Of a DNA stretch of 54,255 nt, positions 1,103 through 54,255 are shown piece after piece; positions within the stretch are counted from its first letter, which is position 1, and every line of letters begins with the position of its first letter. Origin of the DNA: Bacteroidaceae bacterium (lineage in GTDB: Bacteria; Myxococcota_A; Bradymonadia; UBA4248); contig CAVGZQ010000001.1 in NCBI GenBank assembly GCA_963633515.1, forward strand, positions 1-54,255. The letters run 5' to 3'. The translations under genes and the position numbers were made by a program. The notes under the pieces are model-generated. The model made no database searches and had not been told where the DNA came from. It saw only the letters and a list, made by a program, of their open reading frames with translations.

Positions 1103-1252
1103 GGCTATTTCGCCCTTTCGGGCTCAATACGCTGCCGCAGGCTTCGGCTATTTCGCCCTTTCGGGCTCAATACGCCTTCGCTGCCTGCCTATTTGCGTTG
1201 CAAATACGGCAGGCTCGCCGCGCTATTGCCCCTGCGGGGCAATACGCGCGGC
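1103..1252. repeat. REP/BIME-like cluster of 4 GC hairpins (CTAT...ATAC orientation)
   Basis: ggCTATttcgccc-tttc-gggctcaATACgc occurs twice, followed by cctgcCTATttgc-gtt-gcaaATACggcagg and gcgCTATtgcccc-tgc-ggggcaATACgcgc. Intergenic. Confidence 0.75.
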
Positions 1253-8415: not shown

Positions 8416-8607
8416 GCCTGCCGCATTTGCTGCCCGAGCAGCAAACAGGCAGGCCGCGAAGGCGTATGCGGGCGGCCCGCCCGCATAGCCGAGCCGCGCC
8501 GCGCGTATTGCCCTTCGGGGCAATAGCGCGGCAGCGAAGGCGTATTGCGCCGAAGGCGCAATAGCCGAAGCAGGCGTTCGAATCCCCCCGGCAGGGGGGC
8601 GAACGCC
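8416..8607. repeat. REP/BIME-like cluster of 5 GC hairpins (GTAT...ATAG orientation)
   Basis: cctgccgcatttgctgc-ccga-gcagcaaacaggcagg; ggcGTATgcgggc-ggcc-gcccgcATAGcc; gcgcGTATtgccc-ttcg-gggcaATAGcgc; ggcGTATtgcgcc-gaag-gcgcaATAGcc; ggcgttcgaatcccccc-ggca-ggggggcgaacgcc. Confidence 0.75.
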
Positions 8608-13729: not shown

Positions 13730-15484
13730 ATGACAAAAGCAAGGCTTCCCGGCGTATACTTCGAAGATAATCCCCGCGTCGAACGCGGCGTTTCTTTGGG
13801 CGAAACAGGCGTTCCTGCCTTCCTCGGCGTCGCCGAAAAAGGACCGCTCAACGAGCCCGTCGTCATTCAAAGCGTCCAGCAGTTCTTGCGCTATTTTGGC
13901 CAACCCGTCAAAGGAAGCTATTTGCATGCAAGCATCTGGGGCTTCTTCATGAACGGCGGCACGCGTTGCCATGTCATCCGCATTGCGCATGTTTTCAGAA
14001 ACGGAAAATCCGAACTGGCGCGAAAAGCTCGCTATGAGTTGCTCGACCGTTCCGGATATCCCACGCTCGAAGTACTCGCATCCAGCGAAGGAAGTTGGGG
14101 AAACCGGCTCAGCATCGAAATTAACTACCCGGAAACCGCGCGCGTTCACAATTTCATCACGCTCGACATTCTCCCCGGATCCCGCATGATGACCATGCAG
14201 TCGACGCGCGGCATCGAGCGCGGGATGCTGCTCAGACTTTGCGACGGCGAAAATGATCGCTTCGTTACCGTCGAACGCGTCCGCGGGAACGAAGTTTATT
14301 GGAACGACGCCATCGATATTTCCATGCGTTCTGCGGCGCCGACTTATGTCGACTCCGTCGAATTCGACATGATTGTCAGAGACAAAAAACAGAATCGCGT
14401 CGAAAAATTCATCAATCTGTCGATGGGAAAATGGGCATCCCGAAACGTTGCCCGCGTCATCGGCCAAGAATCGGAACTCATCCGCATTTCCGTTTTGGGC
14501 GCCTGCGGTTACGATCAATATCCCGACAAAACCGAAGAAATTGCGTTGCGCGGCGGCCGCGACGGGCTCGACGGCATAACGCCCGACGACGTCATCGGCT
14601 ATAACAACGGTCCCGACGCGCGCTACGGCTTGGGCGCGCTCGAATCGAACGACGAAATCGACCTTGTCGCCATTCCCGATCTTCAGTTTTTTCTCGACAA
14701 TTGCGACGCTTTTCATAGCGTCCGCGACATGATCGGCATCCAAACCGCCATGATCGCGCATTGCGAAAAGATGGGCGATCGCTTCGCCATTCTCGATACG
14801 CCCCGCGATTTAAAACCCGAACAAGTCTTAGATTACCGAAGCAAATTCGAAACATCGTTCGCGGCATTGTATTATCCGTGGATTGTGATGATTAACGACG
14901 ACGGCGAACCCAAACCCGTGCCTCCCTCGGGTTTTATGGCCGGCATCTATGCGCGCTGCGACCGCGAAGAAGGCGTTTTCCGCGCTCCTGCCAACGTTCC
15001 CGTCGAGGGGCTCAACGCCGTCTATACCCTCATGCACGAAGGGCAATTTGCCGAGCTCAACGACAAAGGCATCAATTGCATCCGCTATGCCCCCCAGCGC
15101 GGCATCCGTCCGTGGGGCGCGCGCGCGCTCACCGGTTCCCCCGATTGGCGTTATCTCATGGCGCGGCGCGTCTTTAACGCCGTCCGGCGCGCCATCTACG
15201 AAAATACGCAGTGGGTCGTTTTCGAGGTTAACGGCAAAGAACTCCGCGACAGCGTCAAAACAATGCTCACCGATTTCTTGGGCAAACTGTGGGCCGCAGG
15301 CTACTTCCCCGGAAAAGTCCAAGACGATGCATTTTTCATTACGTGCGACGAAACGAACAACTCCGCCGAAGACGGCGAAATCGGCGTCATGACTATCGAT
15401 GTCGGCATTGCGCTGGGCAAGCCCATGGAGTACATCGTCATGAGTTTCGAACACAAACTCGAAGAACAGGCCGTCGGCGTCTGA
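13730..15484 (+). CDS. Contractile tail sheath protein (phage tail sheath / eCIS sheath family)
   Basis: GAGG SD. Motifs: N-terminal LPGVYFED...GVPAFLGVAEKGP...VQQFLRYFG...FFMNGG, then GGRDGLDGITPDDVIGY, AALYYPWIVM...PVPPSGFMAGIYARCDREEGVFRAPANV, INCIRY...RPWGARAL, WRYLMARRVFN and WVVFEVNG. These are classic sheath signatures. Confidence 0.9.
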   Translation: MTKARLPGVYFEDNPRVERGVSLGETGVPAFLGVAEKGPLNEPVVIQSVQQFLRYFGQPVKGSYLHASIWGFFMNGGTRCHVIRIAHVFRNGKSELARKARYELLDRSGYPTLEVLASSEGSWGNRLSIEINYPETARVHNFITLDILPGSRMMTMQSTRGIERGMLLRLCDGENDRFVTVERVRGNEVYWNDAIDISMRSAAPTYVDSVEFDMIVRDKKQNRVEKFINLSMGKWASRNVARVIGQESELIRISVLGACGYDQYPDKTEEIALRGGRDGLDGITPDDVIGYNNGPDARYGLGALESNDEIDLVAIPDLQFFLDNCDAFHSVRDMIGIQTAMIAHCEKMGDRFAILDTPRDLKPEQVLDYRSKFETSFAALYYPWIVMINDDGEPKPVPPSGFMAGIYARCDREEGVFRAPANVPVEGLNAVYTLMHEGQFAELNDKGINCIRYAPQRGIRPWGARALTGSPDWRYLMARRVFNAVRRAIYENTQWVVFEVNGKELRDSVKTMLTDFLGKLWAAGYFPGKVQDDAFFITCDETNNSAEDGEIGVMTIDVGIALGKPMEYIVMSFEHKLEEQAVGV

Positions 15485-15500
15485 CCGGTGGCGCCGTTGC

Positions 15501-15530
15501 AAGCTGCCTTTTTGAGGCAGCTTTTTTTTT
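15501..15530 (+). terminator. Rho-independent terminator after sheath gene
   Basis: aagctgcc-tttttga-ggcagctt followed by a T-run through 15530. Confidence 0.75.
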
Positions 15531-15540
15531 ATTTTTGCGG

Positions 15541-15958
15541 CTTCGCCTATTGCCGCAAGCGGCAATACGGCTTCGGGGCTTCGCCTATTGCCGCAAGCGG
15601 CAATACGGCTTCGGGGCTTGGCCTATTGCCGCAAACGGCAATACGGCTTCGCGGCTTCGCCTATTGCCGCAAGCGGCAATACGGCTTCGGGGCTTCGCCT
15701 ATTGCCGCAAGCGGCAATACGGCTTCGGGGCTTGGCCTATTGCCGCAAACGGCAATACGGCTTCGCGGCTTCGCCTATTGCCGCAAGCGGCAATACGGCT
15801 TCGGGGCTTCGCCTATTGCCGCAAGCGGCAATACGGCTTCGGGGCTTGGCCTATTGCCGCAAACGGCAATACGGCTTCGCGGCTTCGCCTATTGCCGCAA
15901 GCGGCAATACGGCTTCGGGGCTTCGCCTATTGCCGCAAGCGGCAATACGGCTTCGCGG
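15541..15958. repeat. Tandem array: 11 head-to-tail copies of a 38-bp hairpin unit with 114-bp A-A-B higher-order period
   Basis: Units start at 15541+38n. A = cttcgcctattgccgcaagcggcaatacggcttcgggg; B = cttggcctattgccgcaaacggcaatacggcttcgcgg. Each contains the palindrome TATTGCCGC-AA-GCGGCAATA. Confidence 0.95.
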
Positions 15959-16167
15959 CTGCGCTGTGCCTGCGGCATGCGCGCAGCGCAGGCAAGGCTT
16001 TTGCGCTTCGCGCCTGCGCCTTGCTCGCGCGCCTTCCGCCGGCGGCGGTGCGGCGCGCATTTTCCGTGCATAAGACCTCGGCGCGGTGCGCGGCCGACGG
16101 AATAAAGACAAATAAAAGCAAAAAAAAAACGAACATTTTTTTGAAAAATGCCAACTTATATAGGGAA

Positions 16168-16191
16168 GCATCGCTATGCGCATAGCGATGC
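16168..16191. repeat. Perfect 24-bp palindrome
   Basis: gcatcgctatgc|gcatagcgatgc lies just after an AT-rich stretch (16100-16165) and just before the degraded nuclease gene. Confidence 0.9.
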
Positions 16192-16217
16192 GCAACACCG
16201 GATGAGGACGGTTCCCG

Positions 16218-16845
16218 ATGCGTGACAATTCCATATTTGCGCGAGAAGAATTGGACGAAGCATATTCGCAAATGACGGTTTTTTCCGACGTTTCTTTCGC
16301 AGCATGTTTTTCAAATTATCTTGGACAAACCCGATATCTCCGTTTCCGAAGCCAAATTGCAAGAGCCCATCGGCAACGCATTCGTGCATTCGGTTCGATT
16401 CGATAGATTGGCAACCGATTCGGAAACGCGCTTTTATAATGCAGAGATCCAAAATGCGAACGACGGCAAATTGCTGAGCAGAGCCGATTATTGCGGTTCT
16501 GCGATAAGAATGAAAAATCTCGGAAAAAACGCCGATTATCGCCATGCTCCAAAGGTTTATGATATTTTTACCGTCAAAAATGGAAAATTTTGCAAAGAAC
16601 GACCCATTAATCGCATTTTGATGCGCGACGATTTGCAGGAAATCTATGAAGTCGGAACGCCTGTTTATTTTGTCAGCGGCAAGCTGAAGGATGCGTCGCC
16701 GTCGGGAATGCATAGGAACGATTTTTTCGTGCAATGCCGCATCGCAAATGCGCGATCCCGTTATTGCCGATCGCTTCAGAGAAGCCATTCGGGAGAGAAC
16801 GAAAATGGACGCCATTTAATTAAAACTGCAAAGTATTGCTCATGA
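16218..16845 (+). pseudogene. Degraded PD-(D/E)XK nuclease family (Rpn/YhgA-like, PDDEXK_2) gene
   Basis: Frame of 16321..16845 has ...VHSVRFDRLATDSETRFYNAEIQNANDGKLLSRADYCGSAIRMKNLGKNADYRHAPKVYDIFT (D...E.Q nuclease core plus R..Y.. pattern). The N-terminal part (MTVFSDVSFAACFSNYL) is in another frame, with a shift near the T-run at about 16306-16320. The C-terminal RDPVIADRFREAIRERTKMDAI is also out of frame. Confidence 0.45.
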
Positions 16846-17097: not shown

Positions 17098-17244
17098 GCG
17101 CGTATTGCGCTTAAGCGCAATAGCGCAACCCAAAAGCCGTATTTGCGTCTTCGACGCAAATAGGCGCCCGCGGAGGCGTATTTTGCCCAAAGGCAAAATA
17201 GCCGAAGCCGTTGCCGCATTGCGCCAAAGCGCAACAGGCAACGC
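17098..17244. repeat. REP/BIME-like cluster of 4 GC hairpins (GTAT...ATAG orientation)
   Basis: gcgcGTATtgcgc-ttaa-gcgcaATAGcgc; gccGTATttgcgtc-ttcg-acgcaaATAGgc; ggcGTATtttgcc-caaa-ggcaaaATAGcc; gccgttgccgcattgcgc-caaa-gcgcaacaggcaacgc. Confidence 0.8.
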
Positions 17245-23843: not shown

Positions 23844-26180
23844 ATGCGATCCCTATTGAGCGGAATCCGCAGGCGGTCTTTTTTTTCAGCCATGATGCGA
23901 TACGACGATATGATGAACTTTACGCCGCAAGACCGCGATTTATCCGCCGAGTCAAAAACTTTTGACGGAGAAAGGTCTTTGTCCGATGCGCAGCTCGAAA
24001 CGACGCCGTTTGAATCGGCGCATGAAATGCTTCGTTTGTACCGCGAGCTCTTTATGGCATTGTGCATGTTCAATATCGCCAAAAATCCCGACAGAATGAT
24101 CGACGATATCGGCGCGTATGCGCCGAGACGCGTCGCTTTTCGCGAAATTTTGTCGCAACTTACGGGCGATCCGTCTTCGAAGGCTGTCGAATGGCTGAGT
24201 TCGAATAAAATACCGAGTTGCGCAAGTTGCTCCGAAATTGCTTCGGCGCTATGGCATAACATTGAAATCCGAATCAATGCAACACAACAGGCATCGGTCT
24301 CGCAGTCGGCAGCCGACGGAATTTTGACGTTGCAGCATCTCGAAAAGCGCTTCGGACTTCATTTCGGCGAAACGATGCTGATAGGCTTTCTTGCCCTTAT
24401 TCAATCCGACGAAATGAGCGCTCGCGCTTATGCGTACGCAACGGGCGAGTCTGCCGAAGCGATTGCGAGCGCAGGTTTTCTCGGGCAATGCCTTGCTTTT
24501 TTCGATGTTTCGTTGCAACGCTTCCGGCGCATGTTCGCCCCGGCAAGCCCGCTCATTCGGTATGGACTCATACGTCAGGTTCATCAGGCGGCTTGGGGCG
24601 AAGAAACGCCGCTGCACCAAATGCGTCTCCTTCTTCCGAATAAAATTCTCGGCATTATTCTTAACGATGAAGAAATTACAGTTGTCGCACAATTATCTTG
24701 CGCAACTCCGGTCAGGCTGTCGCCCCGCGATCCGCTCTTTCATTGCCGAAAGCGCATCGAATCGGCAATTGCCGCTGATACTGCCCGCATTGCTGTTGTC
24801 GATGCGCCCGATTGCGCCGAATGGCTTCAAGATGTTATCGCGGCATGCGGATATCATAGCGCCGTCATTGATTCGCGGTCGCTTCAGAGCGATTATCCCG
24901 ACGGCGATATCGGGGAGCTCGTGCGCGATTTGATCCTATGCGACAGCGTGCTCATCGTTCGATGGCATGAACTTGTGCCCGGACCGGAAACATCAAATGA
25001 TATTGCGTGGTTCAAAAACATCGGACCGCGCATATATCAACGTCTCAAATCGGAGCCGCGACTCCGATTGTGCGTCATTGCCGATCGGCAATCGTTGCTT
25101 ACGCGCGCCGTATTCGGCGATCTTGCCGAAATCGAATTGCCCAAACCGTCGCAAACCGATCAGGCGAAGCTTTGGAGTCAAGCGCTTGCGCTCGAAGTAA
25201 GCAAGGAACAGGCCCGGCAAATTGCCGAACAGCTTTCCGGCGGTTATTGTCTCGCAATGCGCGAGATTCAGTCTGCCATCGAACAAACCCGGGCGCACTG
25301 TCCCGATGCTGAGCTCAGCGCAGACTTGATTACGCAAACGCTCAACAAAACCCGCGGGCGTTCGCTCGAGGGTTTGGCTGCACTGCGCAGCACAACGCTT
25401 ACGCTCGACGATATCGTGCTTTCCGACGATATGCGAGCGACATTCGATGAAGTATTGGCATACGCCCGCCATCGCGATACCGTCATGCATCAATGGGGAT
25501 TCGATAAGTACAATGCAAGCGGCGCCGGGCTCTGCGTTCTGCTTTCCGGCGTGCCCGGCACCGGAAAAACGCTGTCGGCGCTTGTCTTGGCTCATGAACT
25601 CCGGCGCGCGTTATACGTCATCGATTTATCGCGCATCGTCGATAAATATATCGGGGAAACCGAGAAAAAGCTTGCTGCGATTTTCGACGAAGCCGAAAGC
25701 TCTCAAGCCGTTTTGCTATTCGACGAAGCCGATTCGCTTTTCTCGAAACGCACAAATGTCAAATCGTCTAACGATCGATATGCCAATCTCGAAGTCAATT
25801 ACCTTTTGCAACGGCTCGAAGCGTATCGCGGCGTTTCGATTATGACGACGAATTTTGCCGACGGACTCGACGAAGCTCTTGCGCGCCGCATTCCGTTCAA
25901 AGTTCGTTTCCCGATGCCCGACGAAGCAATGCGCGCAATTTTATGGCAACGTCTCATTCCGCCGCGAGCTCCTGTAGGCGATGACATCGATTGCGAAGCA
26001 TTGGGACACGCTTTTGAAATGAGCGGCGGACATATCAAAAATGCCGTTTTCCGTGCGGCCATTCGCGCAGCTCAGGAGGATAATCCCATCGATCATGCCA
26101 TGCTGTGGGATGCCGCGCTTCAGGAATTCCGCGAAATGGGACACGTTATCCGCGACACCGTGTCAGAACAATATTATTGA
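23844..26180 (+). CDS. AAA+ ATPase of the type found in eCIS loci (Afp15-like), with about 550-aa N-terminal region of unknown function
   Basis: Walker A GVPGTGKT (25548-25571) and Walker B LLFDEAD (25713-25733). YIGETEKKLAAIFDEAE...DRYANLEVNYLLQRLEAYRGVSIMTTNFADGLDEALARRIPFKVRFPMPD matches the signature I recall for eCIS-associated ATPases. The start codon is uncertain (Met codons at 23844, 23892, 23910). Confidence 0.8.
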   Translation: MRSLLSGIRRRSFFSAMMRYDDMMNFTPQDRDLSAESKTFDGERSLSDAQLETTPFESAHEMLRLYRELFMALCMFNIAKNPDRMIDDIGAYAPRRVAFREILSQLTGDPSSKAVEWLSSNKIPSCASCSEIASALWHNIEIRINATQQASVSQSAADGILTLQHLEKRFGLHFGETMLIGFLALIQSDEMSARAYAYATGESAEAIASAGFLGQCLAFFDVSLQRFRRMFAPASPLIRYGLIRQVHQAAWGEETPLHQMRLLLPNKILGIILNDEEITVVAQLSCATPVRLSPRDPLFHCRKRIESAIAADTARIAVVDAPDCAEWLQDVIAACGYHSAVIDSRSLQSDYPDGDIGELVRDLILCDSVLIVRWHELVPGPETSNDIAWFKNIGPRIYQRLKSEPRLRLCVIADRQSLLTRAVFGDLAEIELPKPSQTDQAKLWSQALALEVSKEQARQIAEQLSGGYCLAMREIQSAIEQTRAHCPDAELSADLITQTLNKTRGRSLEGLAALRSTTLTLDDIVLSDDMRATFDEVLAYARHRDTVMHQWGFDKYNASGAGLCVLLSGVPGTGKTLSALVLAHELRRALYVIDLSRIVDKYIGETEKKLAAIFDEAESSQAVLLFDEADSLFSKRTNVKSSNDRYANLEVNYLLQRLEAYRGVSIMTTNFADGLDEALARRIPFKVRFPMPDEAMRAILWQRLIPPRAPVGDDIDCEALGHAFEMSGGHIKNAVFRAAIRAAQEDNPIDHAMLWDAALQEFREMGHVIRDTVSEQYY

Positions 26181-34969: not shown

Positions 34970-37525
34970 CTAATCATCTTTTGCTTCGTCTTCATTTTTC
35001 GTCTTCGAAAGCGCCGCATACAAATCGAAATCTTCTTCGGTCTCCGTTTTTTGAGCCGTATTTGCCCGAATCATGTCGAGTTCGTCGTATGCAAACCCCT
35101 TGATGACGAGATCTTCCGGATCGGCTTTTTTGGTGACGTCGTCCGGATCGCGCGGCGCATCGGGCGTCATCTGAAGCCTTTCGGCCGGCGCGGTCTTCGT
35201 CGCGTTCTTTTTCCAAGCTTCGAGTTCTCTCATCGACGCTTCGCGTTCGAGCAACGCCTGCGCCCGCGCCGCCTTGTGCTTTTCGGCATTGAGACGCGCC
35301 ATGCGCTCTTGATACGACTCGATTTTTTTGATTTCCGGCGTCACGCTGCCGTCCGATTTGAGTTTTAACGCGCGCTTTTCCTTTTCTTCGGCGGCGCGTT
35401 TCGCTTTTTCGGCTTGAGCCGATTCGAGCTCCCGAATCTGATCGGCGCGCGCCCGCGCCGCATCGTCTGCCGTGACTTTCGCCGCCGGCGCTTCGTCTTC
35501 GAAAAATCGTTTGAAATCGCGCGCAGACGCTTGCGCGGCGTCCGGTTCAGGCGATGCCGAATCGTCCGAATCCGTTTCGCCGCGTTCGGCGGCGCTTCGG
35601 CAGCATTTGGCATTTTCTTCGGGGTCTTCCGACATCTTCAGTCCGAGCGTCGGCGCCGGAACCGTTTCGTCGAATAATTTCGCAAAATCGCGTCTCGGCG
35701 AATTGTCTTCGATCGCCGGCGCGCAGACGGTTTTAATTTTTTCTTCGTTTTTGGGCGCTTCGATTTTGGGCTGCGGATCGGGATCGGGCGTCATCTTAAG
35801 CCCCGACGGCGGCCGCCGGTCTTCCGAAAAGAAATCGTCCGAAAATGAACGCGCCGCGCTTGCGCGCATGGCGTCGGCGTCTTGCGATCCGTCGTCGTAC
35901 TTCGGAATGGCCGCCTCATCGAGCGTGTCGAAAAACGACGCATAGCTCTTGCCCGTGTCTTGCGCCGCCGCGGTTTCTTCTTCGGCATGCGATCGAAGCG
36001 ATGCATCGGTCGCGTCGTCTTGATCGAAAAAAGACGAAAAATCTTTCGTTTGCTGCGGCGCCGGCGAATCTTCGGCATCGTTCGCCGCCCGAATGCGATC
36101 GGCGTCGGGGCTGCCGCCGTCCGACTCGAAAAACCGATCAAACGTCTTTGGCGGATCGTGTTCGGGCGCCGCTTCCGATTCTGCGTCAAATCGGCTTCGA
36201 TCGGCGCCGTCTTCGTCGCCGGCGAAGAAATTGTCATAGCGGCGCGGCGTTTTTTCGCCGGCTTCGGCGCCCTGCGGCGGTTGTTCGCCGGTTTGCGGAT
36301 CGCCGTCGGCGGCCGAATCGTCTCGCGCAAGCTCGCGCGCCAATTTTTCTCTCACCGCAGCCTGCGCCAATCGCTGCTTTTCTTCGAATATTTCTGCCGC
36401 TCGCGCTTCGCTCTCTTCTTTGGCGCTGCGGAACGATTTGTCGGCTTCGTTTCCGCCGATGTTGTCGGGGTCGATCCCGGCTTCCTGCAAAATGCGGCGC
36501 GACTCCTCGTCGAGTCCGGGCACTTCGATGCGGCGTTCCGGGATTTCCGTCAAACCTTTTTCGAAATCGCGATACGCCGCTATCGCCCCGGTTTCGGGCA
36601 GCCGCAGCGCTTCGCCGCGCAATGCCGTCAGCGCCAATATCGTCAAAATTGCCGTATCGAAATACTTGGGCGGCGGCATCTTCTGCGGCGAAGCGTAGTT
36701 TTCGCCGCACCGCCGCCGCTGTTCTGCTGCAAAGGCCTCTGCCTCGGGCGCCAAAATATCGCCGATCATGCCGAAATTCCCCGCGCACAAACATGCCAGC
36801 GCCGCAATCAGCGCGTCGTAACGCATGATCTTGGGCAAAAGCGAAGCCGGCGGCTTGCCGCGCAGCGAATCCCGCGCCTTGGCATACGTGTTTATGCCGA
36901 GCGTCGCTTCGTCGTCGAATCCGCGCCCGATTGCCGCAATCGCGCCCGCATAAATGACTGCCGACAGCCCCGTCAATTCCGCAAAATCTGCGCAAAATCC
37001 CCGTCTGAAATACGACGTCATCAAATTCGCTTCGCGCATCACGTCTTCGGGCGCCGTATTTCCCAACACCATCATCAGCGGCAAACCGTACGTCGCCGAA
37101 AACTCGAGCGTCAGCATCGGCATCCCGCTGATGATTCCGAGCTCGACCGGCATTATCCGCCGCGTCATGAACATTTCGGGCGGCTTGAGTTCCAAGTGCA
37201 TCGCATGCCGTTCATGCAGACAGCGCGCCGCCATAAACGCATCGTCGACGACTTCGTAAATATCGTCGCCCGCCGCAAAACGCAGCTGCATCCGCCAACC
37301 GTACCAATCCAAATTGCGGTAATCGGCCTCGTCGCAATGCTTCGAAAAATACGCGCTGCATTCGCTCAGACGCGCATCGATTGCCGCCAAATCGGCATCG
37401 CCGATTCGCGCTGCGCCGCGCGGCGCCGGTTCATAGGCACGGTCCGATTGGCCGTCTTTCGGCGGTTGCGGCGTTGTCTCGGTCTGAACTTCGTCTGTCG
37501 GGGCGTGTTCCGTTTTCTGCGCCAT
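34970..37525 (-). CDS. Hypothetical protein: about 330-aa alpha-rich N-terminal domain plus about 500-aa acidic disordered region with repeated FF motifs
   Basis: AGGAGA SD 7 nt before ATG 37525 (MAQKTEHAPTDEV...). The track ORF 34970..38317 extends 264 codons further upstream, through the 78-bp repeat array and into the next gene, so that extension is rejected. Confidence 0.7.
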   Translation of the reverse strand: MAQKTEHAPTDEVQTETTPQPPKDGQSDRAYEPAPRGAARIGDADLAAIDARLSECSAYFSKHCDEADYRNLDWYGWRMQLRFAAGDDIYEVVDDAFMAARCLHERHAMHLELKPPEMFMTRRIMPVELGIISGMPMLTLEFSATYGLPLMMVLGNTAPEDVMREANLMTSYFRRGFCADFAELTGLSAVIYAGAIAAIGRGFDDEATLGINTYAKARDSLRGKPPASLLPKIMRYDALIAALACLCAGNFGMIGDILAPEAEAFAAEQRRRCGENYASPQKMPPPKYFDTAILTILALTALRGEALRLPETGAIAAYRDFEKGLTEIPERRIEVPGLDEESRRILQEAGIDPDNIGGNEADKSFRSAKEESEARAAEIFEEKQRLAQAAVREKLARELARDDSAADGDPQTGEQPPQGAEAGEKTPRRYDNFFAGDEDGADRSRFDAESEAAPEHDPPKTFDRFFESDGGSPDADRIRAANDAEDSPAPQQTKDFSSFFDQDDATDASLRSHAEEETAAAQDTGKSYASFFDTLDEAAIPKYDDGSQDADAMRASAARSFSDDFFSEDRRPPSGLKMTPDPDPQPKIEAPKNEEKIKTVCAPAIEDNSPRRDFAKLFDETVPAPTLGLKMSEDPEENAKCCRSAAERGETDSDDSASPEPDAAQASARDFKRFFEDEAPAAKVTADDAARARADQIRELESAQAEKAKRAAEEKEKRALKLKSDGSVTPEIKKIESYQERMARLNAEKHKAARAQALLEREASMRELEAWKKNATKTAPAERLQMTPDAPRDPDDVTKKADPEDLVIKGFAYDELDMIRANTAQKTETEEDFDLYAALSKTKNEDEAKDD

Positions 37526-37621
37526 ATTCAATCTCCTGCATTGCGAGAAGTTTTGCAAAATTCGGGCGGTTTCGCGGCTTTTGGGCGAGCCGCCTGACGG
37601 CTTTCGCCGATGCGGCGGCCA

Positions 37622-37933
37622 GCGCCCTTTTTCGCCTTTCGGCTCAATGCGGGCTTTGGCTCCGGCTGTTGCGGCTTGCGCCGCAATGCGCCTTCGCGGG
37701 CGCCCTTTTTCGCCTTTCGGCTCAATGCGGGCTTTGGCTCCGGCTGTTGCGGCTTGCGCCGCAATGCGCCTTCGCGGGCGCCCTTTTTCGCCTTTCGGCT
37801 CAATGCGGGCTTTGGCTCCGGCTGTTGCGGCTTGCGCCGCAATGCGCCTTCGCGGGCGCCCTTTTTCGCCTTTCGGCTCAATGCGGGCTTTGGCTTCGGC
37901 TGTTGCGGCTTGCGCCGCAATGCGCCTTCGCGG
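37622..37933. repeat. Tandem array: 4 x 78-bp unit, each unit holding two REP-like hairpins
   Basis: Units at 37622, 37700, 37778 and 37856: gcgccctttttcgcc-tttc-ggctcaatgcgggc tttggctcc ggctgttgcggc-ttgc-gccgcaatgcgcc ttcgcgg. Confidence 0.95.
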
Positions 37934-38061
37934 CCCGGCGTGCGCCGGGCGGTTGCGTCCGATTTTTCGGGCTGCGGCAGCGAGCCATGCGCATTGCGCC
38001 GTTTTTTCGTTTCGTGCTTCGCGAAACAAACGCCGCAAAAGCCGGCCGCCGCGCGGCCGAA

Positions 38062-39885
38062 TCAATCTAAGCCGAGCTGATCGCGCGTAAAATACTCGGG
38101 CTCCGACGAATCGTAACGCAAATCGCGCTTGGGAACGAAATACACGAGCGGCGCTTCGTATCCTTCGGCGCGGCCGAAATAACGCGTCAGACGGCGCGAA
38201 ATCTCGACCAAATGCGCAAAATCGACGGCATACGGCGTTTCGATAAAACCGAGACGGAAAGCCGTTTCGCGCGCTTTGGCAAGCGGAACGGCGCCGATTG
38301 CGCCGGCATCTTCGCATGTCAAAACGCCCATATCGGCGAGCTCGCGGAACATCCAGAGGATTTCATAAGTCAAATGGAATCGTCCGATATGTTCCCACAG
38401 CCCCGTCACGACGTCGGCGGCATGCGCGCCCGACAGAAGCTGCCGGACGCCGTCCGCGCCGAGCTTGCCCAACGCATGACGAATGATGAGCAAATAATGG
38501 AGATTGCCGAGATCTTCGGCGCGGTTGGCCATGCCGCCGTCCAAAAGACCGATCAAAATTTCGTCGACCGGCTGCGCCGATCGAATCAAATTCGAATAAA
38601 ACCCCATCTGCTTGAGCATTGCGTACGATTGCCCGCCTTTCGACGTGTTCAGTTTCCCGCCGTATCGGAACAGCTGCAACGCAAGCGCCGACAGGCAAAA
38701 AAGCGCATAGACCGCATCTTCGGCGAAGTCGGCTTTCGAAAAGCCGTAGTCGGCTGCCGTAAGCAGGCGGCCGCCCGGGCGCGTGCGCCACCACGCCTGA
38801 ACGGCATGGAGGTTTTGGGCGACGAGCGCATCGTCGAGACGCAGCTGGGCGAGGCGCACGGTCGGCGCGCTGCCGAATTCGCCGTCATCGTCTTCGATTT
38901 CTTCTTCGTCGGCGCCCCTGAGCGCTTCGCGCACGAGTTCGAGCGGCATATCGTCGGGTTTGGGCGCAAGCGGCTGCACGATGACTTCGACGCGGGTTTG
39001 AGAAATCGGCGCCGAAGCAGCCGGCGCGGCATGGACGCTCTGCGCCGCAACGCTCTGCGCCGAAGCCTCCGGCGCAAACATCGATGCGGCCGGTTCTTTG
39101 TCTTCGGCCGTTTCGGGCAAATCGGCGGCGTCCGGTCTGTCGGGCGTCTTTTCCGACGCATCGCAGCCGGCGCCGTGATGCTGAGGCGCCGAAACGGCGC
39201 CGTCACCGTCGTCGTCATCGTCTGACGGCGCATCGTGTTTTGCGGCCGCGCCGGAGGCGCGGGATCCGGCGCCGTCTTCGTCGCCGTCATCGTCGTCGTC
39301 GTCGTCATCATCGCCCGAACCGCCGCCTTCGTCTTCGAGCAGTTCGTCGATGTCGAGAAGCTTTAATTCGCCCTCGCAGGCTTCTTTGCCCAAATCGCTC
39401 AACCCCCATCGGATGCCCACGATGCGTATGTATCCCGTTGCCTCGAGCCACATCAGCCATGCTTTGAAATTGAGCAGCGTCAGCGTTTTTCCCTGATAGA
39501 TGTAACTCGTCAGATAGCGGTAAATTTCGTTCGTCGAATACAGCCGCTCGGCTATCGCATCCATGATGAATTTCATCAGGATTTTATTTTTTTCCAGCAG
39601 ATGCCGGAAGAGATGGCGCTGGCGATCTTCGGGCGCGGCGATCGTCGGCAAATCGCGCAGGAAGGCGTCGCATTTGACCCGGCTTTCGTCTCGGACATCG
39701 ATGTTGAGGAATCTCAGAACCGTCTCAAACTGCTCTTTGTCGTAGAGCCCGTTTTCTTTGAAAAATTTGCGCAATGCGCGGAAATCGGGTTTTGCTTTGG
39801 CGATAAACGACGCGACAAGCCCGACTTTGGGCAACAATTCTGCGGCGGCGCAACCCGCCAATGCGGCATAATTGATTTCTTGCAT
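38062..39885 (-). CDS. Hypothetical protein: N-terminal wHTH-like domain, poly-Asp linker, alpha-rich C-terminal domain
   Basis: ATG 39885. MQEINYAALAG...AWLMWLEATGYIRIVGIRWGLSDLG, then GGGSGDDDDDDDDDGDEDG and a low-complexity linker, then a roughly 300-aa C-terminal domain. No family recognised. Confidence 0.7.
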   Translation of the reverse strand: MQEINYAALAGCAAAELLPKVGLVASFIAKAKPDFRALRKFFKENGLYDKEQFETVLRFLNIDVRDESRVKCDAFLRDLPTIAAPEDRQRHLFRHLLEKNKILMKFIMDAIAERLYSTNEIYRYLTSYIYQGKTLTLLNFKAWLMWLEATGYIRIVGIRWGLSDLGKEACEGELKLLDIDELLEDEGGGSGDDDDDDDDDGDEDGAGSRASGAAAKHDAPSDDDDDGDGAVSAPQHHGAGCDASEKTPDRPDAADLPETAEDKEPAASMFAPEASAQSVAAQSVHAAPAASAPISQTRVEVIVQPLAPKPDDMPLELVREALRGADEEEIEDDDGEFGSAPTVRLAQLRLDDALVAQNLHAVQAWWRTRPGGRLLTAADYGFSKADFAEDAVYALFCLSALALQLFRYGGKLNTSKGGQSYAMLKQMGFYSNLIRSAQPVDEILIGLLDGGMANRAEDLGNLHYLLIIRHALGKLGADGVRQLLSGAHAADVVTGLWEHIGRFHLTYEILWMFRELADMGVLTCEDAGAIGAVPLAKARETAFRLGFIETPYAVDFAHLVEISRRLTRYFGRAEGYEAPLVYFVPKRDLRYDSSEPEYFTRDQLGLD

Positions 39886-40086: not shown

Positions 40087-40245
40087 GCGGCGTATGCTCG
40101 CAGGGGCGAAAGCCCCGAGAACATAGCCGCGCCTGCCTGCCGTATTTGCAAAGCAAATAGGCAGGCTCAGCCGCGCGTATTGCCCCGTCGGGCAACAGCG
40201 CGGCCGCGAAGGCGCATTTCGCCCCCCGCGGGGGGCGAAACAGCC
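40087..40245. repeat. REP/BIME-like cluster of 4 GC hairpins in a divergent intergenic region
   Basis: ggcGTATgctcgcaggggc-gaaa-gccccgagaacATAGcc; cctgccGTATttgc-aaa-gcaaATAGgcagg; gcgcGTATtgcccc-gtc-gggcaacagcgc; ggcgcatttcgcccccc-gc-ggggggcgaaacagcc. Confidence 0.8.
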
Positions 40246-40419
40246 GAAGCCGTCCGAATCCCGAAGGATCGCCGGGTGCGAAATTTATTGACTTTTTTTG
40301 CCGGACGTGCTATGCGCGGCGCACTCTTGCGGCATGAGCGTCGGGAAGCCCGGGCGCCGCAAGGGAGGCCTTTGTAGCCGCGGCAATTCTTTTTTCTTTT
40401 TTTTATTTCGGAGACCGTC

Positions 40420-46093: not shown

Positions 46094-46107
46094 TCTTTTG
46101 CGCGCCC

Positions 46108-46255
46108 GCGCCTATTGCCGCAGGCGGCAATACGGCTTGGGGGCTTCGCCTATTGCCGCAGGCGGCAATACGGCTTCGCGGGCTTCGCCTATTGCCGCAG
46201 GCGGCAATACGGCTTCGCGGCGGCGCTATGTTCGCGCGAGGCGAACATACGCGCC
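46108..46255. repeat. REP-like cluster: 3 tandem 38/39-bp hairpin units plus one variant hairpin
   Basis: gcCTATtgccgc-ag-gcggcaATACggc occurs at 46110, 46148 and 46187, the same unit as the 15541 array apart from the loop. Then gcgCTATgttcgc-gcga-ggcgaacATACgcgcc. Confidence 0.85.
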
Positions 46256-46469
46256 GCTTTGCCGCAGGCGACAGGGCGGCAAAGCATGCAAAAAAATCAT
46301 GCGCAAAAAGCCGAAAAAAAGCAGGCACTTTCGGCGCAAATCGTATAGTATCGCCCGCAGAACGAATGGGTTTGCGTCTGCGCCGATCGATGCCGCAAGG
46401 CGGCGGAGCTTGGCTCTCGGCATGAGACGCGCGTTTTTTGACTTTTTTTGTGACAATTTGGAGTTTCTT

Positions 46470-49400
46470 TTGACTCGCAGGATTTTGATTAATGGGCGAC
46501 GCGCGGAAGAGGTGCGCGTTGCGATAACCGACAACCAAACGCTTGAAGATTACGAGATAGAAGCGCAGCGGAGCGGACTTTTGCGCAACAATATTTACCG
46601 GGGCGTCGTATCGAATATTGCGCCGAGTCTGAATGCGGCGTTCGTCGATTTCGGCGATGCAAAAAATGGTTTTTTGGCGTTTAACGATGTCGTCGAAAGC
46701 GTGTACTGCAAGCCGGCAAAAGATGCCTATCGCATCGGCGACGTGCTTGAGCCCGGGCAGGAGCTCATCGTGCAGGTCATCAAAGATGCGGGCGGTCCCA
46801 AAGGCGCTCAGGTGACGACGAACATCAGCCTTGCGGGGCGTTATCTCGTTTTGCGTCCCAAAGATGCCAAAAGCGGCGTTTCGCGCAAAGTCGACGAAGA
46901 TGCCCGCGCCGATCTGACGCAAAAAGTGCGCAGTCTCGATTTGCCCGAGGGGTACGGATGCATCGTGCGAACGAATGCGATGGATCAATCGCGCGCGATT
47001 TTGCTGCGCGATGCCAAAGCGCTCGTGCAATTGTGGCATAAAATCGAAGCCGAAGCGGCGCGCGGATGCGGTCCGCAGTTGCTCTACAACGACCAAGACA
47101 TTGTCGTTTCCGTTATGCGCGATTACTTCGATTCGACGATTAACGAAGTTCTGATCGACGACAAATCGTGTTACGAACGCGCCATGACTTATGTCCGGGC
47201 GGCGATACCGAGCGGCAAGGACAGAATTCGGCTGTATGAAGACAAAATGCCGATTTTTTCGCGCTTCGGCATCGAAAAACAAATCGAGCAGATTTATGCG
47301 CGTCAAGTTGCGTTGCCCGGCGGCGGTTATATCGTGATCGATCCGACCGAAGCATTGACGGCGATCGATGTGAACTCGGCGCATGCGACAAAACGCGAAA
47401 ACCAAGATTTGACGGCATATCATACGAATTTGGAGGCTGCGGCGGAAATCGGACGCCAGCTGCGCATGCGCGATATCGGCGGTCTTATCGTCGTAGATTT
47501 TATCGATATGCGTTCGGGGAAACATCAACGCGATGTCGAACGCATGATGCGCAATGCCATGGCTCGCGATAAGGCGCGCAACAAAGTCGAGCGCATCAGC
47601 GCCAACGGTCTTTTGGAGATCAACCGTCAGCGCATCAGTCAGGCGCTTTCGCAGCGCATGCATCTGACTTGTCCGACGTGCGGCGGGCGCGGCACCATTC
47701 CGAGCGCCGAGGCCATCGGGCTGAGTTTGATGCGCGAAATCGACGCCCGCGCGGCGTCGGGCAACTTGGGCGGCGTCAATATCAAACTCCATCCCGACAT
47801 TGCCCAGCAGCTTCAGAACGAACGCCGCAGAGATTTTGCGCAAATCGAAACCGAATACGGCATCCGCATCGAGATTATCGCGACGCGCGAAATGTCGCGC
47901 GGCGAAGAGGCGATTGAGTGGCTGACAAAGAAACAAATCGATGCGCTTCGTCCCGAAAAAACGGCCGTCCGCGATGCGGCATCGATTATCGATGTGGCTC
48001 GGGTGTATGAGACTCAAGATGACTCGGACGATGCTTACCGACCTAATGATTACGAAGAGTTTGCCGGCGACGATGCGCGCCGCAAACGCGCGTCGAGACG
48101 CGCGCGCCGGCGCGATGCCGCGCGGTGCTGCGTTTGCGAATCCTGTGCAAACAAACCCCAAGACATCGAAGATTATTCGGCGGCAAGCGAAGAGGCTGAA
48201 GAAGATTTGTCAAAGCGCCGTTTAAATCGCGACGATCAATTGAACCGCAGCGCAGACGGCGGCGCGCGCCGCCGGAGCGTGTCATGCGCCGATGTTGCCG
48301 CGCATAAGCCGCAGCGCATCGCAGATATCGGGACGGTTGCCGGTCTTGCCGTTCTCGCGGCGCTGATCGGCAAACTTGCGCCGCATATGAACGAAGCCGG
48401 CGATGAAGATCGGATGAAGCGCCGATTCAGCGCGCGCCGCCGTCCGAGCAAAAGACCGAACGCTTCGGGCATTCCGACCGATTTCCGCATGTTCGTTTGG
48501 GATTTGGCAAAAGCCGTGTGCGTTCGGGTTTTCGGGCTTTCGGACGAAATCGCGCGCAAAGACATGGCCGAGCGATTGGGAGACGTTGCGAGTTATTTTG
48601 AATCGATGGCCGAAGCTTCGGGCGAAGAGCGCGACGAAGCCGTCAGCCGGCTTCGCGCCGCGATAACGTCCCGTCATGCGTCTTCTCGGCTTTCGAATAT
48701 GTTTGATGCCGAGCCGGAGGCACCGGCCGACGAAATGGCCGCCATGCTTTTGGCTGCCCGCGACAAAGTCGTTGCGCATATCGCCGACCGAGGCATGACG
48801 GGATGCGCCGAAGCCGCAGAAACAGCTCTTATGCCGTCGATCGCGCGATTTTTGGGCGATAATAATAATGCCGGCGCAGCTCAAGACAACCGAAACAGCA
48901 GCGCGGCGGCCGATGCCGACGAAGCGCCCGCCGACAGCTATACGGTTGCCGATGCGATTGAGGCATTGCCGGAAGACGCGCGTCAGGCGGCCGATGCTTC
49001 GGCGGATGCGCCGCAGCAATTGCGGCAGATGCGCCGAAGCATACGGCGCCGCAGCGCGATTTCCGAACAAACCGCCGATCTGCCGTCCGAGATCGCATTG
49101 CCGGCCGGCAATGCCGAGGCGTTTAAATCGCCCTATATTGCAGACAATGAACCGGTTGTGACTGCCGATGTCGCCATTGCGTCCATGACGCCGGCCGAAA
49201 CGGTTAACGCCGATCGCGACGAAAGTTTGATATCGACATCGGAAATGCCTGCGGTTTCGCGCAGCCGGCGTTCGCGATCGCGCGACAGAAAACGCATCGA
49301 TCAAATCGGCGGCGCGAGCCGGGCCGAGGACGCAATCGCCCCTGCGTTGCAAGCCGAACGCGGCGGAGACGCCGATGCCGAACCGTCGGAAGCCAAAGCC

Positions 49401-50384
49401 GCCGAAACGTCGGATGCGCCGCGAAGCGACGATGCCCCGGAAGGCGCCCGGCGCCGAGTCCGCCGTTCGCGCGGAAACATTTGCGATTCTGCGCTCAAAT
49501 CGGACGGCGGCGTTGCCGCCGACGAAACGCGATCGGTTTCGGCGCAGTCCGATGCCGAGGCATCGGACTGCGCAGCGCCCGAGACGACGGCGGCAGACGA
49601 AAACATGCCGCGCCGGCGCGAACGCCGCGCGCGCAGACCGGAAATCGGCGGCGATAATGCAGCCAAATCGGGCGAAGCCGCCGAAACGGCTGTTTCGCAA
49701 TGCGCCGAAATCTCTGCCGCCGGCGCGAAAACGCCGATTTCCGCCGAACAAAAGCCGAAATCGCGGCGTCTTCGCAGCGAACGCAAAAATGGTCAAACGG
49801 AGAAGGAAAAAGCGTCGGCTGACGCCGCAAACGCGACGTCGGAAGCCGGGGATGCCGCTTGCCCGGCGCCGCGCAATGACTCGGCTGCCGACAAAAGCGC
49901 CGGACGCAGCGTCAGACGCGTGCGCAAAGTCAGCGCGGTCAGCATGAACCTCGATGCTTATGCCCAAGACGAAGCGCGCATGACGCCGTCGGCAAATTGC
50001 GGCGGGCGTGTTCCCGAACATGCGCCGGAGCCGCAGTCCGAGATCCTATCACGCCAAATGCCGCCCCAAAAAGCCGATGCCCAAAGCGAACGGCGCAGTG
50101 CCGACGCCGGCATGACGGACGCTCAAAAGCACGAAGCCGGCGGCAGCGTCATTGAGTCGGCCGACGCCCGCAGCGAAAAAGACGGCGGCAATGCGCCTCG
50201 CGCGCGCAGAACGCGCACGGTTCGCGCCAAACTTTCCGGCAATGATGCGCAACCGACAGCGGCCGATGCCGAAGAATCGGATACGCAACCGGACGGCGAA
50301 GATGTTGCGGCGGTTGCAGCGCCGAGAGAACGCCGCGCGCGGCAAACGCGCCGAACGCGTCCGAACGGCGATCAAAACGCATAA
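46470..50384 (+). CDS. rne: Ribonuclease E (catalytic N-terminal half plus long Arg-rich disordered C-terminal half)
   Basis: GGAG 6 nt before TTG 46470 gives (M)TRRILINGRRAEEVRVAITDNQTLEDYEIE, the canonical RNase E/G N-terminus. S1 domain NIYRGVVSNIAPSLNAAFVDFG, LTAIDVNSA, Zn-link CPTCGGRGT. In-frame ATG 46422 is an alternative start. The track ORF start 46098 runs through the repeats and is rejected. Confidence 0.85.
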   Translation: MTRRILINGRRAEEVRVAITDNQTLEDYEIEAQRSGLLRNNIYRGVVSNIAPSLNAAFVDFGDAKNGFLAFNDVVESVYCKPAKDAYRIGDVLEPGQELIVQVIKDAGGPKGAQVTTNISLAGRYLVLRPKDAKSGVSRKVDEDARADLTQKVRSLDLPEGYGCIVRTNAMDQSRAILLRDAKALVQLWHKIEAEAARGCGPQLLYNDQDIVVSVMRDYFDSTINEVLIDDKSCYERAMTYVRAAIPSGKDRIRLYEDKMPIFSRFGIEKQIEQIYARQVALPGGGYIVIDPTEALTAIDVNSAHATKRENQDLTAYHTNLEAAAEIGRQLRMRDIGGLIVVDFIDMRSGKHQRDVERMMRNAMARDKARNKVERISANGLLEINRQRISQALSQRMHLTCPTCGGRGTIPSAEAIGLSLMREIDARAASGNLGGVNIKLHPDIAQQLQNERRRDFAQIETEYGIRIEIIATREMSRGEEAIEWLTKKQIDALRPEKTAVRDAASIIDVARVYETQDDSDDAYRPNDYEEFAGDDARRKRASRRARRRDAARCCVCESCANKPQDIEDYSAASEEAEEDLSKRRLNRDDQLNRSADGGARRRSVSCADVAAHKPQRIADIGTVAGLAVLAALIGKLAPHMNEAGDEDRMKRRFSARRRPSKRPNASGIPTDFRMFVWDLAKAVCVRVFGLSDEIARKDMAERLGDVASYFESMAEASGEERDEAVSRLRAAITSRHASSRLSNMFDAEPEAPADEMAAMLLAARDKVVAHIADRGMTGCAEAAETALMPSIARFLGDNNNAGAAQDNRNSSAAADADEAPADSYTVADAIEALPEDARQAADASADAPQQLRQMRRSIRRRSAISEQTADLPSEIALPAGNAEAFKSPYIADNEPVVTADVAIASMTPAETVNADRDESLISTSEMPAVSRSRRSRSRDRKRIDQIGGASRAEDAIAPALQAERGGDADAEPSEAKAAETSDAPRSDDAPEGARRRVRRSRGNICDSALKSDGGVAADETRSVSAQSDAEASDCAAPETTAADENMPRRRERRARRPEIGGDNAAKSGEAAETAVSQCAEISAAGAKTPISAEQKPKSRRLRSERKNGQTEKEKASADAANATSEAGDAACPAPRNDSAADKSAGRSVRRVRKVSAVSMNLDAYAQDEARMTPSANCGGRVPEHAPEPQSEILSRQMPPQKADAQSERRSADAGMTDAQKHEAGGSVIESADARSEKDGGNAPRARRTRTVRAKLSGNDAQPTAADAEESDTQPDGEDVAAVAAPRERRARQTRRTRPNGDQNA

Positions 50385-54105: not shown

Positions 54106-54255
54106 GCGCGTATGCTCGCAGCTGCCGCCTGCCTCGCGCGGCAGGCGGCAGCGAGAACATAGCGCGATCGGCGCGGCGCATTTGCAACGCAAACAGCCGC
54201 GCCCGCCTGCCGTATTTGCAACGCAAATAGGCAGGCTCGGCCGCGCGTATTGCCC
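54106..54255. repeat. REP/BIME-like hairpin cluster (runs to window end)
   Basis: gcgcGTATgctcgc[agctgccgcctgcc-tcgcgc-ggcaggcggcagc]gagaacATAGcgc (nested); ggcgcatttgc-aac-gcaaacagcc; cctgccGTATttgc-aac-gcaaATAGgcagg; gccgcgcGTATtgccc... Confidence 0.8.

Follow-up and report, generated by a model that had tools for sequence, protein, structure and literature searches.

Intergenic hairpin repeats with a bulged-G core form head-to-tail mosaic arrays in three genera of one bacterial family

Introduction

Positions 8416 to 8607 of the window (the whole stretch of 54,255 nucleotides analysed here) hold a row of GC-rich hairpins between genes, and similar hairpins recur at other intergenic places around it. 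A sequence-only reading of the window had assigned them to one REP/BIME-like family with copies at nine sites. Few non-coding elements are as common in bacteria as REP-like repeats and, to our knowledge, the action of RAYT transposases on a GTAG tag is the only mechanism of their mobilisation that is understood. The question raised by this locus is whether its hairpins form a real family and, if so, whether they belong to that system or to another one.

Results and discussion

A genome-wide family of intergenic hairpins

All nine sites are present where they had been reported, one of them, a palindrome at 16168-16191, being afterwards excluded as a family member (see below). The proposed over-representation was also confirmed, as the motif GTAT-N(8-30)-ATAG has 34 matches in the window compared to 3.87 +/- 2.07 in shuffled sequences, and none of 100 shuffles reached 34. 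The genome-wide scan that had been suggested found 550 hairpins with an exact clamp (inner stem of at least 3 bp, loop of at most 8) in the assembly analysed (G000; 3.03 Mb in 332 contigs, 54.9% G+C, 90.6% complete), while a third-order Markov simulation of the genome contained 5. When one clamp mismatch was tolerated, G000 was found to carry 711 hairpins in 413 clusters, which is about one cluster per 7.3 kb. Our own, crude gene calling assigned 81% of the DNA to genes and 19% to intergenic space, and 366 of the 413 clusters (~89%) lie in the latter. Of the 47 "genic" ones, 26 fall in the 5' extension, itself doubtful, that an ORF gains when its longest start is taken. All genomes compared in this study are fragmented MAGs, in which arrays may be collapsed by assembly. 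The family is genome-wide, intergenic and structure-conserved, has a fixed short tag and is clustered in mosaic arrays. Its members in the window, and one adjacent hairpin of another type, are listed in Table 1.

Table 1. Hairpin units and arrays in the window
Position	Strand	Feature
1103..1252	-	Array of four units: a D-type pair of identical sequence (GTATTGAGCCCGAAAGGGCGAAATAG) with single B- and C-type units; GTAT on minus strand
8416..8454	+	B-type unit with degenerate clamp (GCCTGCC-GCAT..ACAG-GCAGGC)
8461..8490	+	GGC/GCC outer stem of 3 bp, then bulged G and TAT/ATA, with an inner stem of 10 bp
8495..8536	+	C-type unit: outer CCGCGC/GCGCGG, bulged G, inner TGCCC-TTCG-GGGCA
8539..8566	+	D-type unit: GCGAAGGC-G-TAT-TGCGCC-GAA-GGCGCA-ATA-GCCGAAGC, GAA/GAA internal loop in outer stem
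8573..8607	+	GC hairpin AGGCGTTCGAA-TCCCCCC-GGCA-GGGGGG-CGAACGCC, directly after the array; of another type, outside the family
15541..15958	-	Eleven head-to-tail 38-bp units past the sheath gene terminator
17098..17244	+	Three exact units and one degenerate (GCAT..ACAG)
37622..37933	-	Four 78-bp repeats, each of two degenerate units (GCAT..ACAG and GCAT..AAAG, minus strand)
40087..40245	+	Complete A-B-C-D mosaic element
46108..46255	-	Four-unit array between mnmG and rne
54106..54255	+	A-run and module A, degenerate B, exact B, start of C; array cut by the window end

A conserved outer clamp had been described for the hairpins of these sites. Many units do have it, but the array at 37622-37933 and several units elsewhere are degenerate (GCAT..ACAG or GCAT..AAAG). 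The hairpin at 8573-8607 was rejected as a family member, being of another design without the GTAT/ATAG core. Neither does the lone palindrome at 16168-16191 belong to the family, as it is a symmetric CTAT..ATAG. It is a perfect 24-bp palindrome (GCATCGCTATGCGCATAGCGATGC) located ~130 nt upstream of a small gene (16321-16845), and is retained with one change in a strain-level relative (L122). That gene is overlapped by a 213-aa minus-strand ORF (16174-16815). Since the DNA homology to a comparison species (G002, contig C98, 5503-5988; MnmG 83% identical to that of G000) is on the plus strand, 16321-16845 is the likelier gene, and the minus-strand ORF looks spurious. A further observation in the window is an AAA+ ATPase gene (23844-26180) that is absent from an otherwise collinear G002 stretch (C73:11808-12046); elsewhere only paralogous AAA domains match it.

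The arrays also generate or lengthen long false ORFs, as at 15289-16185, 34970-38317 and 46098-50384 of the window, examples being a 298-aa ORF across the 38-bp array and the 5' extensions of rne and of the gene at 34970-37525. In practice, the arrays break short-read assemblies of the clade and create such ORFs.

Each unit is a stem-loop with an asymmetric core

The hairpins had been described as held by a conserved outer clamp, GTAT and ATAG with G/C flanks. Both tetranucleotides and their flanks are conserved, but the "clamp" is better read as a core within a longer stem. In the exact-clamp copies of G000, position -1 is C in 99%, and positions -2, -3, +1 and +2 are G or C. The G of ATAG pairs with the C preceding GTAT, and the G of GTAT is left unpaired as a bulge; from the outside inwards, a unit has an outer stem, the C:G pair, the bulged G, TAT:ATA, a variable inner stem and the loop. 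In this register, Watson-Crick pairing extends to the next two flank positions in 97% and 96% of 518 distinct copies, compared to 53% expected from base frequencies, with G:C and C:G in roughly 2:1 proportions. A clamp closed by a G.G mismatch was rejected, because the flanks fail to pair when the two G's face each other (two registers tested on the 518 distinct copies). Each unit is a stem-loop of 36-45 nt, in which the C:G pair, the one unpaired G and the three T:A/A:T pairs are invariant. The outer stems are of two classes, one with 7 continuous pairs and the other with 3 pairs, a GAA/GAA internal loop and further pairs (GCGAAGGC ... GCCGAAGC). Minimum free energy folding with ViennaRNA recovered the bulged-G fold for all three canonical units at 8461-8566, with fold z-scores of -10.6 (+ strand, DNA) and -8.0 (complement, RNA).

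The compensatory stem variation noted in the sequence-only reading withstood a quantitative comparison. Across 48 distinct units of equal length, 90.8% of the cells are paired, whereas the proportion is 65.7% in shuffles (0 of 500 as high) and 29-41% with slid partners. The two outer columns, which played no part in choosing the 48 units, hold G:C 26 and C:G 20 in one case and G:C 25 and C:G 22 in the other, each with one unpaired cell. The core itself varies in a restricted way. In G000, GTAT+ATAG was found 336 times, GCAT+AAAG 85 times and GCAT+ACAG 29 times, while GCAT+ATAG was found only 7 times (variants in the window lie, for instance, at 40233-40275 and 37622-37933). Although they do not pair with each other, both T's of the central TpA step are exchanged jointly, and the two A's stay.

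Arrays are ordered mosaics of modules

In 174 of 181 multi-unit clusters, every unit has the same orientation, head to tail. The gap from ATAG to the next GTAT is 15 nt in 136 cases, 16 nt in 52 and 14 nt in 34, and since the two outer half-stems fill it, successive hairpins abut. Alignment of copies with identical inner sequence from unlinked loci yielded four module types. Module A is GCGCGGC-GTATGCTCGCAG(tip)CGAGAAC-ATAG-CCGCGC, with 213 copies under a relaxed pattern; module B has the outer stem GCCTGCC/GGCAGGC and the inner stem TTGC..GCAA, module C the outer stem CCGCGC/GCGCGG and the inner stem TGCC..GGCA, and module D an outer stem with the GAA loop. An array begins at its 5' end with an A-run, followed by module A, modules B/C and finally module D. 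This order is not random, as C is followed by D 31 times and D by C 3 times, and B by D 16 times and D by B once. The 5' end is sharp, and an A-run precedes 99 of the 213 A modules. Both flanks of the arrays are A-rich and, on the GTAT strand, almost devoid of T-runs. Read on the complement, module A and the T-run after it resemble an intrinsic terminator in the same 99 of 213 cases, and the other modules lack T-runs (T5+ in 1-3% of flanks).

Within module A, base X in GC-X-CG covaries with base Y in GAG-Y-AC. The X:Y combinations in G000 are T:A 156, C:G 12, G:C 6 and 8 non-pairs; in G002 they are G:C 202, T:A 17 and 1 mixed, and in G003 and G006 G:C 28 and G:C 77, respectively, with no T:A or mixed case in either. 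The covariation fixes the register, so that conserved C.A and G.A mismatches are seen to flank the covarying pair, and it shows both a structural constraint and a lineage-specific sweep. Which variant of module A is dominant differs between species, and this sweep of variants through the family amounts to concerted evolution.

The family is confined to three genera and evolves in place

The pattern SSCGTAT-N(10-22)-ATAGSS was searched in related genomes, with the reversed pattern as a control. All 11 genomes of genus g1 have 560-1100 matches per genome, and genera g3 (3 of 3 genomes) and g5 have 290-730. Genera g2 and g4 of the same family are at the control level (11-16), and so are 14 genomes that represent six further families in the order and class. 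Judged by MnmG, the best named relatives of G000 are only ~50% identical, and an exact look-up of this protein in other assemblies gave no record. Among the genomes examined, the hairpin family is confined to three genera (g1, g3 and g5) of one family.

Between G000 and G002, array contents turn over while the arrays stay in place. Four of them (8.4 kb, 37.6 kb, 40.1 kb and the sheath-gene array) occupy the same place in G002, in the same orientation to the flanking gene, with different modules, tips and unit numbers; at the sheath-gene place G002 has a 3 x 36-bp array. In G002 the orientation of the array before rne is reversed, and the small gene at 16321-16845, which lies on another contig there, has moved together with its own downstream array. 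Two of about 5 breakpoints between the two genomes are at arrays; since breakpoints without arrays exist too, a link between arrays and rearrangement is not established.

Change was also followed among strains. In strains of the same species as G000, the array upstream of rpsA, the single cluster followed base by base, differs only in its loops (GAAA to GCAAA, T to G) and in a tip expanded on two arms. In G002-like strains, the corresponding array consists of one or two units of A plus x, with A loops CGGAG or TGAAA and one indel bounded by AAAAAG. The sheath array of 11 units has 3 in a strain-level relative, a difference to be read in the light of possible array collapse in MAG assemblies, and elsewhere unit numbers of 1 and 2 were found among strains. 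One strain has the 17.1-kb array unchanged, with about 20 differences visible in some 1.1 kb of the DNA beside it. A separate observation concerns the region upstream of rpsA in the G002-like strains (L113, L115 and L117 compared to L110 and L112), where a stretch of ~130 nt between the inverted repeats TTTTTGCGATTCGCTGG ... CCAGCGAATCGCAAAAA is found in some strains and missing in others, the indel being bounded by AAAAAG. This stretch could be a second small mobile or structured element.

No RAYT partner was found

The sequence-only reading had seen no Y1 transposase gene in the window. This proved correct, and a search with PF01797 gave no candidate in the whole of the 90.6%-complete G000. 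None was found either in the incomplete MAGs G003 (99% complete), G006, G009 and G012, despite their hundreds of repeats. Y1 genes occur in 7 of 10 congeners. A search for a Y1 gene flanked by inverted copies of the family had been proposed; the six Y1 loci inspected in relatives (L081-L086) carry other flanking hairpins. In one of these loci (L086, contig C271 of G008), a RAYT-like Y1 gene lies among genuine GTAG REPs (GTAGCCCCCGGTTGGC...). The RAYT-like Y1 genes of two others (L083 in G007 and L084 in G001) share flanking hairpins of a different kind, ATAACCGAGGC.. and GCGGCTGGAAGCCGC, and the L084 copy is located between hsdR- and hsdM-like genes. Two other candidates were considered and rejected: a reverse transcriptase, an idea that came from the A-run flanks, is encoded in only 3 of 15 repeat-bearing genomes, and an IS110 transposase in only 6 of 15; both are absent from G000.

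These results bear on the explanation that the hairpins are REP/REPIN elements of the classical type, which a RAYT (Y1 HUH) would mobilise in trans, its gene being missing from the incomplete assembly or recently lost. Such an origin would suit a high-copy, intergenic and GC-rich repeat with a fixed tetranucleotide one base off GTAG, and the Y1 genes of the congeners together with the incompleteness of G000 speak for it. RAYTs recognise a folded single strand via GTAG plus loop or bulge features, and the bulge of the present family matches the need of E. coli TnpA-REP for a stem irregularity (PMC8266576). However, REPs are defined by a terminal unpaired tag, GTAG or CGTC, and mostly form inverted HH/TT dimers, head-to-tail pairs being rare (PMC3733652), whereas here TAT is paired and leaves no free guide, and the arrays run head to tail. 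With four repeat-rich genomes lacking Y1 in addition to G000, and with other hairpins, the real GTAG REP included, at the Y1 loci of relatives, we consider this explanation highly improbable.

Signals on the two strands and orientation to genes

Another explanation places the function in RNA: the arrays would be stacks of 3'-UTR hairpins that block exonucleases or terminate or insulate transcription, and the core would be an RNA motif for an RNA-binding protein or an RNase. Several features fit it. Loops typical of RNA are enriched on the GTAT strand (GNRA 16 vs 2 on the complement, UUCG 6 vs 0, GCA 20 vs 8), and these, along with G.A/A.A internal loops and the conserved non-canonical GAA/GAA, C.A and G.A motifs, are features of functional RNA that speak against a DNA-level reading, as does the terminator-like complement of module A with its T-run. 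Elements are also commoner at the 3' ends of genes (convergent 26 vs divergent 10), although this enrichment fits simple promoter avoidance as well as a role in RNA or termination. The RNA-type loops and the terminator-like T-run, however, are on opposite strands, and a gene reads into the terminator-like side in only 51 of 82 elements. Among internal mismatches there is no clear excess of G.U over A.C (8 vs 4, few cases), and no relevant Rfam match at E <= 1 was found in the whole window.

Moreover, array orientation is independent of the direction of transcription. In tandem-gene contexts, the two array orientations number 39 vs 35 and 37 vs 27, and those of elements with an A-run 15 vs 17. 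Arrays are often located between divergent genes or shortly before promoters, in the window at 8.4 kb, 17.1 kb and 40.1 kb, such as the element at 40087-40245, which ends ~30-35 nt upstream of a TTGACT hexamer taken as the putative -35 of rpsA. Weighing both sides, we regard a role at the RNA level as possible but unlikely.

Neighbouring arrays alternate in orientation

While orientation ignores genes, it depends on the neighbouring array. The window arrays at 1.1, 8.4, 15.5, 17.1, 37.6, 40.1, 46.1 and 54.1 kb are oriented -, +, -, +, -, +, - and +. Throughout G000, adjacent clusters within 10 kb of each other alternate in 85 cases and have the same orientation in 29 (32 vs 3 for multi-unit clusters), while beyond 10 kb the split is 50/50. 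In pairs less than 1.5 kb apart, the A-run (terminator-like) ends face each other in 17 of 18, an arrangement that an RNA-level role would also accommodate. A hand count on the first 100 matches in G003 gave 22 vs 5 in favour of alternation; in genus g3 the tendency is weak and not significant (11 vs 7 and 7 vs 5). Because orientation ignores the direction of transcription and depends on the orientation of the neighbouring array, we infer that the family acts in DNA rather than in RNA.

Local duplication was examined as a source of the alternation and rejected. Neighbouring arrays share hardly more 16-mers than random pairs do (0.018 vs 0.008), and with so little likeness in sequence, simple local duplication fails to explain the pattern. 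The genes enclosed by close inverted pairs were likewise rejected as a cargo or a cognate enzyme, as the inner segments are non-homologous and the genes, by eye, are ordinary and mutually unrelated (resembling those for glutamate dehydrogenase, a cytosine methylase, cyclophilin, an outer-membrane protein and a BspA-like protein). The alternation may have arisen by deletion of direct-repeat configurations, or it may have arisen by duplicative inversion. We know of no description of such alternation for REP-type elements, though the literature was not specifically searched for it. If it holds in closed genomes, it ties small repeats to local genome architecture.

How the repeats may be made and kept

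Taking the evidence together, the hairpins are best explained as lineage-specific, mosaic intergenic repeats of the same general kind as REP/BIME or NIME that constitute a separate family, a reading to which we give an even chance. The asymmetric core would be the recognition site of a protein acting on the GTAT strand as folded DNA, either single-stranded or cruciform; no partner protein was found. The enzyme involved would be other than a RAYT. The number of units in an array could rise and fall through slippage, or through unequal crossing-over of units, and module variants might spread as copies of master copies or via gene conversion. Pairing in the stems would be upheld by selection or by hairpin-templated repair, and therefore only loops and tips would drift.

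A more specific proposal, which we advance as speculative and improbable, is that the bulged-G core is the site of a structure-specific DNA enzyme, not a Y1 HUH one, which copies or recombines arrays locally; outcomes in direct orientation would delete DNA and be lost, and inverted ones would survive as duplicative inversions. If this were true, the alternation of neighbours would be explained, and the process could contribute to the clade's unusual scattering of gene clusters into small blocks.

The opposite position is that no dedicated protein or function exists, and that self-perpetuating palindromes spread, and stay perfect, solely through replication slippage, hairpin-templated correction and homologous recombination. 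The changes in copy number and the A-run-bounded indels between strains, the joint expansion of both arms of a tip, and the lack of a mobiliser among Y1, reverse transcriptase and IS110 genes are all in keeping with it. Templated correction, however, would erase the bulged G, the C.A and G.A mismatches and the GAA/GAA loop, all of which are invariant over hundreds of copies in three genera, and the presence of the repeats at more than 400 unlinked intergenic sites requires some insertion process. We therefore judge self-perpetuation without a dedicated protein decidedly improbable and favour the reading of a separate, lineage-specific family.

Comparison with known systems

The REP/BIME-like assignment made from the sequence was right as to the general kind, in that the repeats are structure-conserved and intergenic, with a short tag and mosaic arrays, but membership in the REP-RAYT system fails on the tag, the dimer orientation and the Y1 partner; the family is therefore filed as REP-like in kind and outside REP-RAYT. 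With the REP/BIME elements of Enterobacteria and the REPIN-RAYT systems of Pseudomonas it shares high copy number, intergenic position and GC-rich imperfect palindromes of 20-45 nt (PMC3733652, PMC8266576, PMC3116915). It further resembles them in the short invariant tag and the stem irregularity, in the principle of a folded strand, and in having sub-families whose stems change in a compensating manner. Mosaic clusters, vertical inheritance in a clade and a preference for the 3' ends of genes are likewise common to both. The differences are equally distinct. The REP tag is a free GTAG or CGTC at one end, whereas the present family has C-G-TAT..ATA-G inside the stem with only the G unpaired. 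REPINs are inverted HH/TT pairs, whereas the present units follow each other head to tail with a 15-nt spacer, and successive REPs of a BIME alternate in orientation, whereas successive units here share one, mosaic structure being common to both. Unlike those of REP/BIME, the modules are ordered, with an A-run at the start. Binding of IHF, DNA gyrase or Pol I is a further hallmark of BIMEs. Finally, REP-RAYT systems have a cognate single-copy Y1 gene flanked by the same repeats, and no such gene was found in G000 or among the Y1 loci inspected in relatives.

In the NIME of Neisseria, RS units are flanked by dRS3 (ATTCCC-N8-GGGAAT), a symmetric 20-mer that serves as an integration target of the phage/IS110 type. 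The two families are alike in having short conserved terminal inverted bases round a variable centre, large intergenic mosaic clusters and modules shuffled between loci. They are unrelated in sequence, and the present core is asymmetric because of the bulged G, its centre is a true hairpin, and IS110 does not co-occur with it.

The attC sites of integrons are folded bottom-strand sites of 57-141 nt with R/L boxes that follow each cassette in one orientation and need IntI and attI. By analogy, the present units would share with them a recognition based on structure, with a conserved stem base, an extrahelical base marking the strand, and a terminal structure that varies, also in length. Unlike attC sites, they are 36-45 nt long and form arrays that alternate in orientation, and no R/L boxes, IntI or attI were seen.

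With 290-1100 matches per genome, a distinct asymmetric core, direct arrays and no RAYT, reverse transcriptase or IS110 partner, the family points to a way of making and maintaining repeats other than those of the systems compared here. Its core and covarying stems offer a clean sequence handle for finding the protein that reads it.
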